61,095 bases of DNA, from the NCBI GenBank assembly GCA_038894195.1, contig JAWAPZ010000003.1:1-61095 (forward strand), written 5' to 3'. The translations under genes were made by a program, and so were the position numbers. Origin of the DNA: Candidatus Pacearchaeota archaeon (GTDB taxonomy: Archaea; Nanobdellota; Nanobdellia; Pacearchaeales; UBA284). Of the stretch, positions 3,257-51,635 are shown one piece after another. How positions within the stretch are numbered: position 1 is the first letter of the stretch; each line of letters starts with the position of its first letter. The notes beneath the pieces were generated by a model. That model was given only the letters and a program-made list of their open reading frames with translations. It did not search any database and was not told where the DNA came from.

Positions 3257-3378
3257 CGCCGGGACTGGGACTCGAACCCAGATATCCTTACGGAAACAGG
3301 TTTTTCATTTTTCTTCCAGAGGCTTCCTTTTAAGAAGGCTCTTAGCAAACCTGCGCCTTACCATTGGGCCATCCCGGC
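3257..3378 (-). tRNA. tRNA-Ser(GCU) with 40-nt intron at 37/38 (3303-3342)
   Basis: GCCGGGA/UCCCGGC acceptor, CAGGU/ACCUG anticodon stem, UUGCUA|A loop, long variable arm, G73; relaxed BHB (3 of 4 central pairs). Confidence 0.92.
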
Positions 3379-3464
3379 TTCTAACTTAAAAGAAAATTAA
3401 ACTTTTAAATTTTTTGAAATAAAAAGATTTTTAAATAAGAAATCTTTAAGAGCTCGGAGGTAAA

Positions 3465-4145
3465 ATGAAGAAACTCTTATTTTTTTTGTTGACTTTATTG
3501 CTTCTAGTTTCAGTTTCAGTTACAGCTTTAGCAAATGAAAAAGATATTGAAAGAGTTGATGTCATACATTACTTAAAGCCGGGAAATGGCATGCCAAGAG
3601 AAGCAAAAGCACAGGCGTGTTACAAATTACTTGGAATAAAATGGGACACTGCAGTCAATTATACAATTAATCCAACAAATCCACAGGGTTTGCCAGAAAA
3701 CTTTATAATTTTAGCCATCTCAACCTCAGCAGAAACATGGGATGACGCAACTTCAAGCGAGCTTTTTAATGACAACTATCTTGTAAATTATACGGCACAA
3801 TATGGTATAAGAAACAATGAAAATGCGCTTGTTTTTGCTGATTATCCCAGTGATAATGTAATAGCAATAACTTCTTATTGGTATAGTCGAAAGACAAAAA
3901 CAATACTAGAGTTTGATGTATTATTTAACACAAGGTTTACTTGGGGAGATGCTACACAAAACACGAGTGTAATGGACTTGCAGAATATAGCAACTCACGA
4001 GTTGGGTCATGCTGTAGGGATGAACGATGTTTATCAAACTGTTTGTTCTGAAGTTACAATGTACGGCTATTCAAGTTATGGAGAAACTAAAAAAAGAACT
4101 TTAGAACAACCGGACATAACAGGCTTGCAAAAAATGTATGGTTAA
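3465..4145 (+). CDS. Secreted metzincin (matrixin-like) zinc protease
   Basis: Signal peptide; HELGHAVGMND zinc motif; Met-turn VTMYG; GGAGGT SD. Confidence 0.88.
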   Translation: MKKLLFFLLTLLLLVSVSVTALANEKDIERVDVIHYLKPGNGMPREAKAQACYKLLGIKWDTAVNYTINPTNPQGLPENFIILAISTSAETWDDATSSELFNDNYLVNYTAQYGIRNNENALVFADYPSDNVIAITSYWYSRKTKTILEFDVLFNTRFTWGDATQNTSVMDLQNIATHELGHAVGMNDVYQTVCSEVTMYGYSSYGETKKRTLEQPDITGLQKMYG

Positions 4146-4177
4146 TTTTTCTTTGTTGTTTTGTTTTTTGCTAAAAA

Positions 4178-4713
4178 TTAACAAATATTTTCTCCTTCCT
4201 CTAGAACTTGTCTTTTAATATAAATTTTAGCATCAAACCTCAAAGCAATTGCTATTGCATCGCTCGGTCTTGAGTCGAGAGCAAGAATTTTGTTTCCTTG
4301 TCTTAAAAAGATTTTTGCAAGATAAATTCCATCTCTCGTTTCGTGAATAATCACATGAATAACTTTTATATCATAGATTTCAAAAATATTTTTTATTATA
4401 TCGTGCGTCAAAGGTCTCTCTGTTGTTTTATTTTTAGCGCCGCTTCAATAGAAATCGCCTGATCCTGTGTTATTGTCATTACAACTGCTTTGCATTCGCG
4501 CTTCAAAAAGAGAGTTTGTCCTTCTAAATAGACTTCAACTTCTTGAAAATTTTTCAAAGACAATTCTTCTATCCTTACTTCTTCAAGTTTTTCTTTATTT
4601 TCTTTATAGTGCAAGCCAATAAAGAGACCTAAGAAAAAGAAAATTATTGTTAAAACAACAAACAGAAAAAAAAGTTTTTTACCGATTTTTTTCTTACTCA
4701 TTTTCGACTGCAT
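4178..4713 (-). pseudogene. Bifunctional nuclease (DUF151) family, membrane-anchored, frameshifted
   Basis: Adding one A near 4426-4435 joins ..ISIEAALKIK to TTERPLTHDII..DSRPSDAIAIAL. Confidence 0.8.
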
Positions 4714-4942
4714 TCTTCTTCCTTTCGATTAATTTCTTCGCTCTTCCAAGCATCTCTCGTTTTAAGCCAATAAAACAACCTCCTGGTTTGCCAGCACAAT
4801 ATGTCGCTTCGCCTTCTTTAATTATTTCTGCAATTTCTGGAGATTCAATATCAATATGTGTAATTCTCGCACGACTTTTACCTTGCTCGTGCAAATAAAC
4901 TTTTGCCTTAATAAGATACTTGCCTTCACCTGGACCACTCAT
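4694..4942 (-). CDS. Small hypothetical protein
   Basis: 82-aa ORF, TATA-like element about 25 nt upstream, overlaps the next gene. Confidence 0.65.
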   Translation of the reverse strand: MSGPGEGKYLIKAKVYLHEQGKSRARITHIDIESPEIAEIIKEGEATYCAGKPGGCFIGLKREMLGRAKKLIERKKNAVENE

Positions 4943-4979
4943 GAAAAACTTAATAAGCCCATGTATTTAAAATTTATTA

Positions 4980-5165
4980 GGGGCTGTAGTATAACTTGGT
5001 TAGTATACGTGCCTAGGGAAGCATTCTTTCTTTTGAAAAAGAAAGAACCTTGGGAAGAAAGAAAATCAAAGTTAGAAAAAACTCTAGAACGCACGCGATC
5101 TGGGTTCAAAGAGCTTTCCTAAAGAGAAGCCTCGGAAAGAAAGCATGAGAATCCCAGCAGCCCCA
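4980..5165 (+). tRNA. tRNA-Pro (anticodon reads AGG) with introns at 37/38 (5019-5089) and 59/60 (5111-5151)
   Basis: GGGGCUG/CAGCCCC-A73 acceptor, D loop CUUGGUUA, CGUGC/GCACG anticodon stem, CUGGG/CCCAG T stem; both introns form BHB motifs; mature length 74 nt. Confidence 0.9.
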
Positions 5166-48743: not shown

Positions 48744-51635
48744 TTAAAAATAAATCTCGATTTTATGATCTTTTATATTCTTTCTCAATCTTAATATTGT
48801 CATTTTCTCAAAATCTATTGAAGAAGCATTAACTCTATCTCTGATTATTTTTTCATTCTTTTTTATTAATTCTTTTAAGTAACTATCACACTTAATCTGA
48901 AGTTTAATAAGGTGCCCTCTTTTTAGAGATGCTCTCTTCCTAGCCTCTTGGATAATTCTTACAATTTCGCGAAGGTAACCTTCTGCTTCTAATTCAGGAG
49001 TAAGTTTTGTGTCAAGCTTGACAGAAATTTCTTTTCCTTGTTTAATTTTAATTTTTTTGACATTTAATTGTCTCATTATCAAATTTTCTAGTTCGGGGTT
49101 TAATTTCTCTTTCGAGATTATTTCTGCATTAAGCAAAGGCCATTTTATCCCAACTCTCTTCTCTGCTCTTACTGCAAGACCTTTCTCAATAATTTGAAGT
49201 ACAACATCAAACAATTTTTCAAGTTGCTTATCTTCAAATTTTTTGTTTGCTTTCGGCCATCTACACAAATGAATCGATTCTTCTTTTAAATTAATTTTTT
49301 TCTTAAATTCTTGAAATATTTTTTCCGTTGTGAAAGGAATTGCTGGCGCAAGCAATTTTAAAGTGGTTAAGTAAGTATCTAGTAAAACTTTCAAAGCAAT
49401 CTTGCTGCTCTCATTTTTTTCCTGGAACTCTTGTACCCGCGGGCGAATCATTTGGATATAGGTTCTTGAAAGGTTATTAATAAAAAAATTCTCTATAGTC
49501 TTAAGATAAAAATCTGGTTTATATTCTTCAACGTATTTTGTTGATTCCTCTATGACACTGTTGATTCTACTTAAAATCCATCTGTCCTCTGGTTGGAGGT
49601 CTTTTTCAGAAAAATTATCATTTTCTATACCAAGTTCGAGTATATAATTGCCTATGTTGTTTAGAATATTTAAAGCACGTTCAGAATCTCTTGCAAGTTC
49701 AAAACTAAAATTCAAATTTTCATGCGGATTTACTCTTATGTACAAATATCTTAAAGCATCTGCACCTAATTTTTCAATAGCTTCATCAAGCCATATTGCA
49801 TTTCCTAAACTCTTATGCATTTCTCTTCCTTTTGCATCTTTAACGAGCTCGTATGTAAAAACATTTTTGTATGGTGCCTTGCCTTCAAGAACTACTCCTG
49901 CAAGTAACATAAAAAAGAACCATAATCTGTACTGTCCTGGACCGCATTCAAGAACAAGATCAGCAGGAAACCATTCATTAAAATATTTTTTATTTTTCAA
50001 CCAGTCTAAAGTATAGAAAGGAACAAGACCTGCGTCCATCCACACATCTACCGTATCTAAAACACGACGCATTAAACCACCACACTTACATCTCAAAAAA
50101 ACTTTATCGACGCCAGGTCTCCTGTGCTCTTTGAAATGTTCTATTCCTTTAACAGCCTTCTCCTTTAACTCATCAGCAGAACCTATAACCTCGAAGTTGT
50201 TACACTTTTCGCATTCCCATATAGGCATTGCTAACCCGTAATATCTTTTTCTGGAAAGAAGCCAGTCACCCATGTTTTCAAGCCAGTTTTGTTCATAGAA
50301 TTTTCCCTGCTCAGGAATCCAATTAACTGTTTCATTTGCCTCCATCAAAGCTTTTCTAATCTCTTTCATTGATATATACCATTCTGGAACAAGTCTGAAA
50401 ATAACCGGGGTTCTGCACCTGGTGCAATGTGGATAACTATGTTTATATTTTTCTTGCTTAAGTAAAAAATTTCTTTTCTCAAGGTCTTTGACTATTTCAT
50501 TATTAGCTTTAGAAGAATCCATGCCAGCAAGCCACCCATAACCCTCAAGATATTTACCTTCTTCATCAAGAGGCGAGATAGCAGGTAATTTGTATTGCTT
50601 GCCGAGCTGGTAATCCTCTGGCCCACAACCAGGAGCTATATGAACAATTCCAGTACCTTCCTCGCTACTAACATCCTGCCATAAGATAACTCTATGTGGC
50701 GCTTTAACTTTCTCCTTAGAATCTAACTTCGACCCAGCAATCCGCGATGCTTTTTGTGGTTCAAAATCTTTATAAGGCATTTTATACTGAATTCCTTCAA
50801 GATCTTTACCTAACATCTTACCAACAATCTCGAATTTTCCAAGGATTTTTTCAGCTAGATTTTCAGCTAGAATAAAAATTTCATTATTTTTCTTAGCTTT
50901 AACATAATAAATTCCCGGATGAACAGCTAACGCGACATTTGCAGGCAAGGTCCATGGTGTTGTTGTCCAAACTAGAAAATATTCTTTCTCATTCGTGTTT
51001 TTAACAGGAAATTTCAAGTAAACAGCAACATCCTCGCGATCTTCGTAGCCCTCTGTTGCTAACGCATGCTTTGATTGTGCTGTTGTGCATCTCGGGCACC
51101 AAGGAACAACATCTATCCCTTTATATAACCACCCCTTCTCGTGACAGTGCTTTATAAAAAACCATTTGTAATCATTTGCTATAAAACTATGCGTGTAATA
51201 ACTGTTTTCCCAATCCATCCACTGCCCCAAACGAATTGACTGCTCTGTTATTAATTTCGCCATTCTTTCAGTTCTTTCTTTGCAAGCTTCAACAAAATTT
51301 TCTATTCCGAATTTTTCTATATCCTCCACAGTTTTCAAACCTTTCTCTTTCTCAACTTCAACCTCAATCCAAAGACCTTGGCAATCAAAACCATTCTGAA
51401 ATCTCTGTTGAAAACCTTGCATCGCCTTAAACCTTTGAAAAAAATCTTTATAAGTACGACCCCACGCATGATGGACCCCCATAGGATTGTTGGCAGTTAT
51501 AGGGCCATCTATAAAACTCCATCTCTTACCTTTACTATTTTGTTTGCAGAGTTTATCAAAAATCTTATTTTCTTTCCAAAATCTCAAAATCTCAAGTTCT
51601 GTTTCTTTAGACATAGTAATTAAAAATAATGGCAC
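48744..51635 (-). CDS. ileS: Isoleucyl-tRNA synthetase, atypical GVHH type (likely start 51614)
   Basis: DGPITANNPMGVHH, GFDCQGL, WTTTPWTLPAN, DWLLSRKRYYG, EMHKSLGN. Confidence 0.93.
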   Translation of the reverse strand: MPLFLITMSKETELEILRFWKENKIFDKLCKQNSKGKRWSFIDGPITANNPMGVHHAWGRTYKDFFQRFKAMQGFQQRFQNGFDCQGLWIEVEVEKEKGLKTVEDIEKFGIENFVEACKERTERMAKLITEQSIRLGQWMDWENSYYTHSFIANDYKWFFIKHCHEKGWLYKGIDVVPWCPRCTTAQSKHALATEGYEDREDVAVYLKFPVKNTNEKEYFLVWTTTPWTLPANVALAVHPGIYYVKAKKNNEIFILAENLAEKILGKFEIVGKMLGKDLEGIQYKMPYKDFEPQKASRIAGSKLDSKEKVKAPHRVILWQDVSSEEGTGIVHIAPGCGPEDYQLGKQYKLPAISPLDEEGKYLEGYGWLAGMDSSKANNEIVKDLEKRNFLLKQEKYKHSYPHCTRCRTPVIFRLVPEWYISMKEIRKALMEANETVNWIPEQGKFYEQNWLENMGDWLLSRKRYYGLAMPIWECEKCNNFEVIGSADELKEKAVKGIEHFKEHRRPGVDKVFLRCKCGGLMRRVLDTVDVWMDAGLVPFYTLDWLKNKKYFNEWFPADLVLECGPGQYRLWFFFMLLAGVVLEGKAPYKNVFTYELVKDAKGREMHKSLGNAIWLDEAIEKLGADALRYLYIRVNPHENLNFSFELARDSERALNILNNIGNYILELGIENDNFSEKDLQPEDRWILSRINSVIEESTKYVEEYKPDFYLKTIENFFINNLSRTYIQMIRPRVQEFQEKNESSKIALKVLLDTYLTTLKLLAPAIPFTTEKIFQEFKKKINLKEESIHLCRWPKANKKFEDKQLEKLFDVVLQIIEKGLAVRAEKRVGIKWPLLNAEIISKEKLNPELENLIMRQLNVKKIKIKQGKEISVKLDTKLTPELEAEGYLREIVRIIQEARKRASLKRGHLIKLQIKCDSYLKELIKKNEKIIRDRVNASSIDFEKMTILRLRKNIKDHKIEIYF

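Follow-up and report, generated by a model that had tools for sequence, protein, structure and literature searches.

The question raised by this locus is how two different tRNA genes come to hold similar introns at different positions. The locus lies in a 61,095-nt stretch of DNA, referred to here as the window (contig JAWAPZ010000003.1, positions 1 to 61,095, of the Candidatus Pacearchaeota archaeon assembly GCA_038894195.1, handled below as G000). In it a tRNA-Ser(GCU) gene carries an intron in its anticodon loop, between positions 37 and 38, and a tRNA-Pro(AGG) gene carries both a canonical 37/38 intron and a non-canonical intron at 59/60 in its T loop. An earlier interpretation, made from the letters of the window without database searches (the sequence-only reading), had aligned the Ser intron with the Pro 59/60 intron and proposed an active mobile tRNA-intron family in a DPANN lineage. 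The answer favoured here, with a probability of roughly 0.8, is that the three introns would be copies of one short dispersed repeat, family A, such that what appears as intron transposition would be the spread of a genome-wide repeat. The features concerned are given below in window coordinates, with bit scores from a covariance model (CM R1) built from 18 copies of the repeat, and with matches to a hidden Markov model (the leave-out HMM) whose training copies came solely from other genomes.

3257-3378, minus strand: tRNA-Ser(GCU) gene, 122 nt; exons 3343-3378 and 3257-3302; Rfam tRNA match, 45.9 bits.
3303-3342, minus strand: 37/38 intron of tRNA-Ser(GCU), 40 nt, AGAGCCUUCUUAAAAGGAAGCCUCUGGAAGAAAAAUGAAA; read by hand.
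3308-3342, minus strand: family-A core of the Ser intron, GAG-C-CUUCUU / loop / AGGAAG-C-CUC with UG-GAAGAA tail; CM R1, 48.9 bits.
4980-5165, plus strand: tRNA-Pro(AGG) gene, 186 nt, with two introns; exons 4980-5018, 5090-5110 and 5152-5165.
5019-5089, plus strand: canonical 37/38 intron of tRNA-Pro(AGG), 71 nt, with bulge-helix-bulge motif.
5018-5065, plus strand: long-stem family-A repeat in the Pro 37/38 intron; matched by the leave-out HMM and by CM R1 (5018-5062, 41.2 bits, the sequence itself being part of the seed).
5111-5151, plus strand: non-canonical 59/60 (T loop) intron of tRNA-Pro(AGG), 41 nt; base 5110 is A59.
5110-5144, plus strand: family-A core of the Pro 59/60 intron; CM R1, 43.1 bits.

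Over their first 33 nt the Ser 37/38 and Pro 59/60 introns are identical at 27 positions without a gap, and the coordinates of the original alignment (3303-3342 on the minus strand with 5110-5151), its count of 27/33 and its placing of the two introns in different tRNAs at different positions are all exact. Shuffled sequence, which had been proposed as the control, does not reproduce the match. With dinucleotide composition preserved, 5,000 shuffles give at most 25/33 identities in any register, and the local alignment score of 44 lies above all of 20,000 (null 18.9 +/- 3.9, maximum 42). The genome-wide clustering of introns that had likewise been suggested was carried out as an all-against-all comparison of 34 introns from the tRNA genes of G000, and it yields further members. 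The Arg(UCG) 37/38 intron (C1:56183-56226) joins Ser and Pro 59/60 in a cluster of three (pairwise z of 7.8 for Ser-Arg, 5.5 for Ser-Pro 59/60 and 5.6 for Arg-Pro 59/60), with the Asp(GUC) 37/38 intron as a weak fourth. The internal GAG..CUC hairpin also holds: among the 18 members of the model, 95.6% of cells are paired and five pairs have changed on both sides, which 0/500 shuffles match.

Two points of the sequence-only reading stood in part. The short piece CCUUGGGAAGAAA of the Pro anticodon intron, which it had related to the Ser intron, is not significant when set against Ser alone (z = 1.7), whereas the intron as a whole does belong to the family and has 89-92% BLAST identity to tRNA-Leu and tRNA-Ile introns of a relative (G023). 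The shared terminal AUGA is indeed present, but is weak evidence of homology because it is partly forced by the pairing of the intron with the first four bases of the loop. A more exacting comparison is provided by the leave-out HMM, built from 62 distinct copies in a model-based alignment and run on the whole of the 535-kb G000 (1.07 Mb on two strands). It returns four significant matches, all of them tRNA introns, and nothing else that is significant. The best in the genome is Pro 59/60 (E = 9.6e-7), followed by Arg(UCG) 37/38 (1.2e-6), Ser 37/38 (1.3e-6) and Pro 37/38 (8.2e-4), the fifth match, Asp(GUC) 37/38, being not significant at 0.26. A common origin of the window introns is supported by these comparisons.

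Run on the window, ARAGORN and Rfam report tRNA-Thr and tRNA-Ser only and leave the tRNA-Pro gene undetected; the Rfam alignment of tRNA-Ser(GCU) places a 42-nt insert within the anticodon loop. An earlier, loose cloverleaf scan gave 685 candidates, mostly false, and was replaced by a stricter custom scan for a T arm adjoining a 7-bp acceptor stem. By this means the tRNA-Pro gene was located, with the acceptor stem GGGGCUG/CAGCCCC, the T stem CUGGG/CCCAG and an anticodon stem CGUGC/GCACG that encloses 78 nt. Removal of the inserts restores a complete cloverleaf in both genes, ARAGORN recognising the spliced sequences as an 82-nt tRNA-Ser(gct) and a 74-nt tRNA-Pro(agg), and the junctions so predicted agree with the empty sites of intronless orthologues. 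A different splicing of the Pro gene, with two introns around CUUGGGA to give tRNA-Pro(UGG), yields a product that ARAGORN also accepts, and is ruled out by the CUAGGGC loop of the orthologues together with the CUAG:CUAG helix described below. In other words, since the intronless orthologues in G002, G011 and G017 have the loop CUAGGGC, the gene is tRNA-Pro(AGG) with one canonical 71-nt intron, and CCUUGGGAA is best read as intron sequence within the repeat and not as an anticodon loop. In the introns no snoRNA family exceeds the Rfam threshold, and no C/D boxes were seen by eye.

All three introns are placed after base 6 of a 7-base loop closed by a 5-bp stem, and it is in this sense that the 37/38 and 59/60 sites are geometrically equivalent. 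In each intron the four bases preceding the last two pair with loop bases 1-4, leaving two 3-nt bulges. The Pro 37/38 intron (stem CGUGC:GCACG) has the central helix CUAG:CUAG with 4/4 pairs and the bulges GG/A and AA/C. The Pro 59/60 intron (T stem CUGGG:CCCAG) has the central helix UUCA:UGAG, again 4/4, the bulges AA/G and AA/U and an outer helix GCUUUC:GAAAGC, and its minimum free energy fold recovers the bulge-helix-bulge motif. The Ser 37/38 intron, read by hand, has a relaxed motif in which the central helix UUGC:AUGA forms 3/4 pairs, with the bulges UA/A and AA/A. Among 33 tRNA-hosted copies of the repeat from many genomes the central helix is 4/4 in 19 and 3/4 in 12, counts that are somewhat generous as the register was optimised. 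The genome holds a single EndA gene (C2:44.4-45.0 kb) for a protein of 189 aa with N-terminal and catalytic domains (PF02778 and PF01974), which by its size would be of the alpha4-sized type, a type that has been linked with increased tRNA disruption in DPANN archaea (PMC5829648, in the sections drawn on here). The single EndA would cut at the predicted bulges and a ligase would rejoin the exons; we infer that the introns are removed in this way.

Comparison with related genomes, also proposed at the outset, gives the pattern that has been called transposition in Thermoproteales, in that orthologous tRNA genes in sister genera are without these introns. The tRNA-Ser and tRNA-Pro genes are syntenic neighbours in several relatives, and presence or absence of the introns varies between species. 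Within the same family, at least 10 genomes have a tRNA-Ser(GCU) without an intron. The gene has family-A introns in G028, G040 and G045 and an interrupted family-A copy in G035, and in G018 and G023 it contains other introns with different interiors, whose 3' end (AAUGCAAAC) resembles that of G000; the 3' end AAAAAUG(C)AAA(C) is common to all three genomes. tRNA-Pro(AGG) is intronless in G002, G011 and G017, and the T loop is intact in the orthologues of these three genomes and of G023. Homologous 37/38 introns are found in G019 and in G023, where this is the only intron of the gene, and G014 has a 59/60 intron from a different family. In G003 (G003:C17) there is a 16-nt 59/60 mini-intron, AGCGGAAAGCUGAAAA, which equals the G000 intron minus its hairpin (UUUCC..GCCUC). 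This mini-intron indicates that the Pro(AGG) 59/60 site was occupied before the split of G000 and G003, and suggests that hairpin modules may be deleted from, or inserted into, an intron frame that persists. Since relatives either lack the introns or carry others at the same sites, the sites appear to be gained, lost and refilled on short time scales, although the comparison is unpolarised.

The relatives were ranked by IleRS identity, used for ranking only. The nearest on this measure are G003 and G011 (74%) and G008 (67%), and a family-A copy is found in none of them. As a separate observation, IleRS (48744-51635 in the window) exists as two divergent types within the same family, with 51% against 40% identity to the window protein in genus g11, which suggests replacement by transfer.

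The repeat itself has a defined layout. It opens with 5'-(R)RAGC, followed by a pyrimidine arm, a loop of 3-5 nt, a purine arm and C-CUY-GG, and closes with a purine tail that is the mirror image of the purine arm. In the Pro 37/38 intron these parts are the pyrimidine arm UUCUUUCUUUU (5024-5034), the purine arm AAAAGAAAGAA (5037-5047), CCUUGG and the mirror tail AAGAAAGAAAA within 5052-5065. By the covariance model the repeat is present in 66 of 401 genomes of the order, covering 44 of 153 genera; in the other orders of the class, 15 of 400 genomes have it. Copy numbers per genome are lower bounds, because only 16 candidates were scored in each. The genomes that bear it are of the Pacearchaeota/Woesearchaeota type. 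An exact pattern of the 18-nt core, searched against 596 Gb of genomes, gave mostly chance bacterial matches. The tRNA hosts number at least 15 species, including Ser GCU, Leu CAA/UAG, Arg UCU/UCG, Cys GCA, Gly UCC/GCC and Pro CGG/AGG, with initiator Met, Gln CUG, Ile UAU (at 59/60, in G023), Val, Trp, Lys and Asn as further hosts, and both nested and tandem copies occur.

tRNA genes are, however, not the only location of the repeat. Of 40 loci sampled from the best matches, 26 (about two thirds) are intergenic, that is to say not in tRNA genes, and the intergenic copies are oriented with the genes, showing a strong sense-orientation bias. Among 30 intergenic copies, 13 either start exactly at the stop codon of an upstream open reading frame (ORF) on the same strand or overlap it, against 2 in antisense, and eight have a same-strand start codon 0-14 nt downstream. 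Because the repeat is also intergenic in other genomes, the homologous introns at different positions are taken to be products of a genome-wide spread. The proposal of a mobile tRNA-intron family in DPANN archaea is in this respect borne out as to lineage (with named relatives among Candidatus Pacearchaeota and Woesearchaeota metagenome-assembled genomes) and too narrow as to its host, the family being not confined to tRNA introns. The word 'active' goes further than the presence/absence variation between species allows.

Three intergenic sites could be compared with their orthologues. The copy in G260 lies where four congeneric genomes have two genes overlapping by 11 nt (ATGATTATTAA); compared with these empty sites, the filled one shows a duplication of 9-11 bp (ATGATTATT..) flanking the insert on either side. 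At a second site G262 has the repeat, whereas in G412 and G416 the site is empty. At the third, both species of one genus have a copy between flanking genes of about 70% identity, and the two copies differ by compensatory changes in all three tracts. At the orthologues of the G260 site, G178, G403 and G407 (L225, L226 and L213) contain unrelated inserts of 76-187 nt, each holding another, GGAAACCUUAGGUUUCC-like, hairpin family and each flanked by the same 9-11 nt duplication; this gene junction is an insertion hot spot.

The three tracts of the repeat, pyrimidine arm, purine arm and tail, vary together. Across 65 distinct copies aligned to the covariance model, the six bases that follow CCUY-GG are a mirror of the purine arm or, in other words, a parallel complement of the pyrimidine arm. 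The tail agrees with the mirrored purine arm at 5.66 of 6 positions; permuting the tails between copies lowers this to 4.30 +/- 0.11 (0/5,000), although such permutation tests overstate independence and give no strict probability, because the copies share ancestry. Nearly every level is U-A.A or C-G.G. The mirror is perfect in nine distinct haplotypes, for example CUUCUU/AAGAAG/GAAGAA, UCUCUU/AAGAGA/AGAGAA and UUUCUC/GAGAAA/AAAGAG, and the Pro 37/38 intron has 11 consecutive perfect U-A.A / C-G.G levels. The Ser copy keeps 5/6 mirror levels and the Pro 59/60 copy 4/6, the latter looking partly decayed. Antiparallel Watson-Crick pairing between tail and pyrimidine arm was considered as another source of the pattern and rejected, since it is not enriched (4.39 against 4.49 permuted).

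This three-way co-variation indicates selection for a fold-back three-stranded structure of the class II intrastrand triplex type. The stems of family A are 6-11 nt long and the first loop has 3-5 nt, while the second spacer (C-CUC-GG), of 6-7 nt, is in part base-paired within the outer stem. The ITxF criteria for such structures are stems of 6-15 nt and loops of 1-6 nt (PMC4666352, in the part consulted). According to the same part of that paper, purine-motif triplexes are reported not to form in RNA, and for this reason the triplex, if real, is likelier in single-stranded DNA than in RNA. The displaced non-template strand, as an example of single-stranded DNA, would fit the orientation bias, and the complementary strand would fit the pyrimidine motif.

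The explanation that emerges is as follows. Elsewhere in G000 the repeat would have two more copies, in Arg UCG 37/38 and, weakly, in Asp GUC 37/38. Within a tRNA gene it would form the 5' 35-45 nt of the intron and be followed by a host-specific 3' end, comprising a tetranucleotide complementary to loop bases 1-4 and then usually AA. Together with the 5-bp stem, this 3' end would produce the bulge-helix-bulge motif, with splice sites after loop base 6. Between related genomes the repeat appears to be gained, lost, nested, tandemly duplicated and replaced. It would spread at the DNA level, thereby creating or refilling introns, and the fold-back structure would be under selection and may take part in the copying. 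The host-matched 3' end could arise either by quick selection on that end or by hairpin modules moving into and out of pre-existing short introns, and the G003 mini-intron and the shared 3' ends of the Ser introns hint at the latter. A bolder and decidedly tentative extension is that the repeat acts as an 'introner' for protein-spliced introns, a self-folding, triplex-forming sequence that copies itself into the 7-base loops of tRNAs and into DPANN gene junctions. As a possible route, the polymerase would stall at the folded single strand and switch template, and new bulge-helix-bulge introns would thereby be created at 37/38 and 59/60, then to be removed by the endonuclease.

Several observations weigh against the spread of a dispersed repeat as just set out. 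The 3' ends of the introns match their host loops, which simple insertion does not explain. Target-site duplications were looked for around the tRNA-hosted copies and none was found, and no transposase is linked to the repeat: a Y1 transposase (PF01797) occurs in 3/11 repeat-bearing and 0/8 repeat-free genomes and is absent from the highest-copy genomes examined, these being incomplete metagenome-assembled genomes. As the Y1 transposase does not track the repeat, mobilisation of the REP/RAYT kind finds no support. In G000 neither the covariance model nor the leave-out HMM detects an intergenic family-A copy, in a genome that is about 70% complete and in which such copies have possibly been missed. 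The central helix of the Ser intron has just three of its four pairs, with no clear outer helix after the 5' bulge. Furthermore, the strong orientation bias points to a constraint at the level of RNA or linked to transcription, which sits uneasily with the reported failure of purine-motif triplexes to form in RNA, and the shared ancestry of the copies tempers the permutation result.

A different view takes the repeat as chiefly a functional module, either an mRNA 3'-end or junction element or a protein-binding site, which tRNA introns tolerate or recruit. Such an element would bring a stop codon together with a stable hairpin and a tail that is rich in purines and Shine-Dalgarno-like. It would account for the orientation bias and for the copies placed exactly at stop codons, eight copies being followed by a same-strand start codon within 0-14 nt, as well as for the persistence of the repeat in very compact genomes and for the intergenic copy that two species have kept at the orthologous site, where all three tracts show compensatory changes. 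Conversely, all significant copies in G000 are in tRNA introns, where the RNA is discarded; copies decay, as in Pro 59/60 with its 4/6 mirror levels; orthologous intergenic sites are often without the repeat; and mobility is itself compatible with a functional module. We regard this view as unlikely, if far from fanciful. Old introns, vertically inherited and kept similar by gene conversion, with absences that are losses and no transposition at all, would in turn explain why the 3' end of the Ser intron is common to G018 and G023 despite their different interiors, and why the 16-nt G003 intron matches the G000 intron without its hairpin; precise intron loss is, moreover, a known process. Gene conversion, however, is unable to make copies at new sites, and the repeat occupies two positions and at least 15 tRNA species, occurs nested, in tandem and between genes, is distributed patchily over 44 of 153 genera, and includes an intergenic copy whose site is empty in four congeneric genomes, the flanking genes overlapping there. 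Vertical descent without transposition is accordingly held to be improbable.

The remaining doubts concern the window introns themselves. The tRNA-Pro locus might be a pseudogene in decay, full of inserted repeats, and no functional two-intron gene. This would be consistent with its escaping ARAGORN and Rfam, with its 112 nt of inserts and with the presence of further Pro genes (UGG and CGG) in the genome. It is difficult to reconcile with the perfect cloverleaf of 74 nt that results from removing both inserts at the bulge-helix-bulge sites and that closely resembles the intronless orthologues in relatives, with splicing helices that are both 4/4, with the standing of this gene as the sole AGG isoacceptor found, or with the synteny kept beside tRNA-Ser; the pseudogene is to our minds very improbable. 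Least credible of all is resemblance by chance or convergence, whereby A-rich introns would have come to look alike through the bulge-helix-bulge requirement and without common descent. The introns are purine-rich and of low complexity, the 3' AUGA/UGAG-AA that they share is dictated by pairing with loop bases 1-4, and the CCUUGGGAAGAAA piece alone is not significant against Ser. Yet no shuffle among the 20,000 reaches the observed score, and the conserved core (GAGC-hairpin-CCUCGG-tail) lies outside the bases of the splicing helix. The same core is found in intergenic DNA, where a splicing motif is unneeded, and a profile from other genomes, run over 1.07 Mb on two strands, singles out precisely these introns. 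The spread of family A as a dispersed repeat is the reading that we retain.

The genome in which these copies lie abounds in tRNA introns to an extreme degree, and at least 11 of 38 tRNA genes are missed by the standard finder (Rfam). The 535-kb assembly (C1, C2, C4, C5 and C7) has at least 38 tRNA genes, about 27 of them with introns and nine with introns at 59/60. A second and stronger intron family (UGAUCAGAAACCUACGGUUUCCGAUGCUUUCCC.., with z up to 20) is found in tRNA-Gly(UCC) at 37/38 and in tRNA-Lys(UUU), tRNA-Leu(UAA) and tRNA-Pro(CGG) at 59/60, the loci being C7:389-510, C1:136450-136622, C1:115395-115606 and C1:56611-56738. tRNA-Ser(UGA) (C1:174968-175165) has a 116-nt T-loop intron made of three tandem hairpin units of about 35 nt (AAUAAGGAACACAUUUCCUUAUCAACCUUUGGAAG), with related units in other introns. 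tRNA-Thr(UGU) (C2:27088-27193) and the same tRNA-Leu(UAA) apparently have introns on both sides of the anticodon loop, the Leu gene having its third intron at 59/60. In G000 (C1:57129-57204), as in a relative, G040 (L032), position 33 of the initiator tRNA-Met is C (loop CCCAUAA).

A further peculiarity is the A at position 34 in two tRNAs of G000, namely tRNA-Pro(AGG), with a loop (CUAGGGC) that at least seven related genomes conserve, and tRNA-Leu(AAG) (C7:13783-13893), which also has a D-loop intron. A34 is normally avoided by archaea. The only protein of the CDA fold in the assembly is a dCMP-deaminase-like protein of 164 aa on C2, and no TadA-type match was found there. Between the two tRNA genes of the window lies an ORF (3466-4146, plus strand) which, as read from the DNA, has a hydrophobic, signal-like N terminus and the sequence HELGHAVG; this looks like the motif of a secreted zinc metalloprotease.

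The gain of archaeal tRNA introns has been an open question since transposition was described in Thermoproteales in 2010, and from what is given of that study in PMC4090602 a mechanism is still lacking. Family A provides a second and phylogenetically distant case of intron transposition, in which the unit is a compact, defined repeat of about 35-45 nt, and so offers a concrete example of the origin and spread of protein-spliced tRNA introns. The empty and filled orthologous sites, with the nested and tandem copies, make intron gain testable, the copies outside tRNA genes tie it to an ordinary dispersed repeat, and the three-way co-variation predicts a specific structure. At a practical level, the introns explain why tRNA genes escape standard finders in these genomes. 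The similarity first noticed is confirmed, and its interpretation is partly supported and widened, to tRNA-intron transposition in a new lineage, apparently carried by a genome-wide hairpin repeat of the triplex type.

The closest precedent among tRNA introns is that of the Thermoproteales (Fujishima et al. 2010, Mol Biol Evol 27:2233, via PMC4090602), and what follows of it is limited to what the latter paper relates. There, as in family A, significant similarity is found between introns of non-orthologous tRNA genes at sites both canonical and non-canonical, the junctions are of the bulge-helix-bulge kind and comparison of close relatives points to recent gain. The differences lie in the lineage and in the unit. 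Thermoproteales are Crenarchaeota with an (alpha-beta)2 endonuclease, whereas family A belongs to DPANN archaea in which, judged by size, a single alpha4-sized EndA would serve. The family-A unit is, moreover, abundant outside tRNA genes, in sense orientation at gene ends, and a three-tract co-variation signature is unreported for the Thermoproteales families in that source.

In ultrasmall archaea, 59/60 introns and tRNA genes with several introns are already documented, for ARMAN-2 (PMC3239211, PMC3488258) and in a survey of Pacearchaeota and Woesearchaeota (PMC5829648), and the EndA variants of these organisms are thought to be broad in substrate specificity (the same three papers). The sections of these papers used here deal with types of endonuclease and counts of disrupted genes, and contain no intron sequence families, intergenic copies or triplex-type architecture. 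Full-text search of the literature found no paper on these three aspects of DPANN tRNA introns.

Outside tRNA genes, short hairpin repeats of the REP/BIME kind and miniature inverted-repeat transposable elements (MITEs) resemble family A in their occupation of intergenic transcribed spacers at gene ends and in a conserved 5' tetranucleotide before the palindrome, and the 9-11 bp duplication that flanks one intergenic copy is a further likeness. Unlike them, family A has no cognate transposase that tracks it, no terminal inverted repeats beyond the hairpin and no target-site duplication at its tRNA-hosted copies. Nearer in architecture are the bacterial PIT elements, BoxC and TMECO, which are class II intrastrand triplex repeats (Hoyne et al. 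2000, as cited in Holder et al. 2015, PMC4666352, on whose relevant section the comparison relies). As described there, these have the same order of tracts on one strand as family A, pyrimidine, purine and an antiparallel third purine tract, with G.G-C and A.A-T triads, and like family A they are multi-copy, mostly extragenic and tied to rearranged loci. There is no sequence similarity between family A and the BoxC/TMECO consensus given in that source, the bacterial elements being G/C-rich and family A being A/U-rich. Family A differs also in being archaeal, in its extra conserved GAG:CUC outer stem with a C.C mismatch, and in its location inside predicted spliced tRNA introns. The repeat may, in other words, work like the class II triplex repeats of bacteria without belonging to the BoxC/TMECO family.

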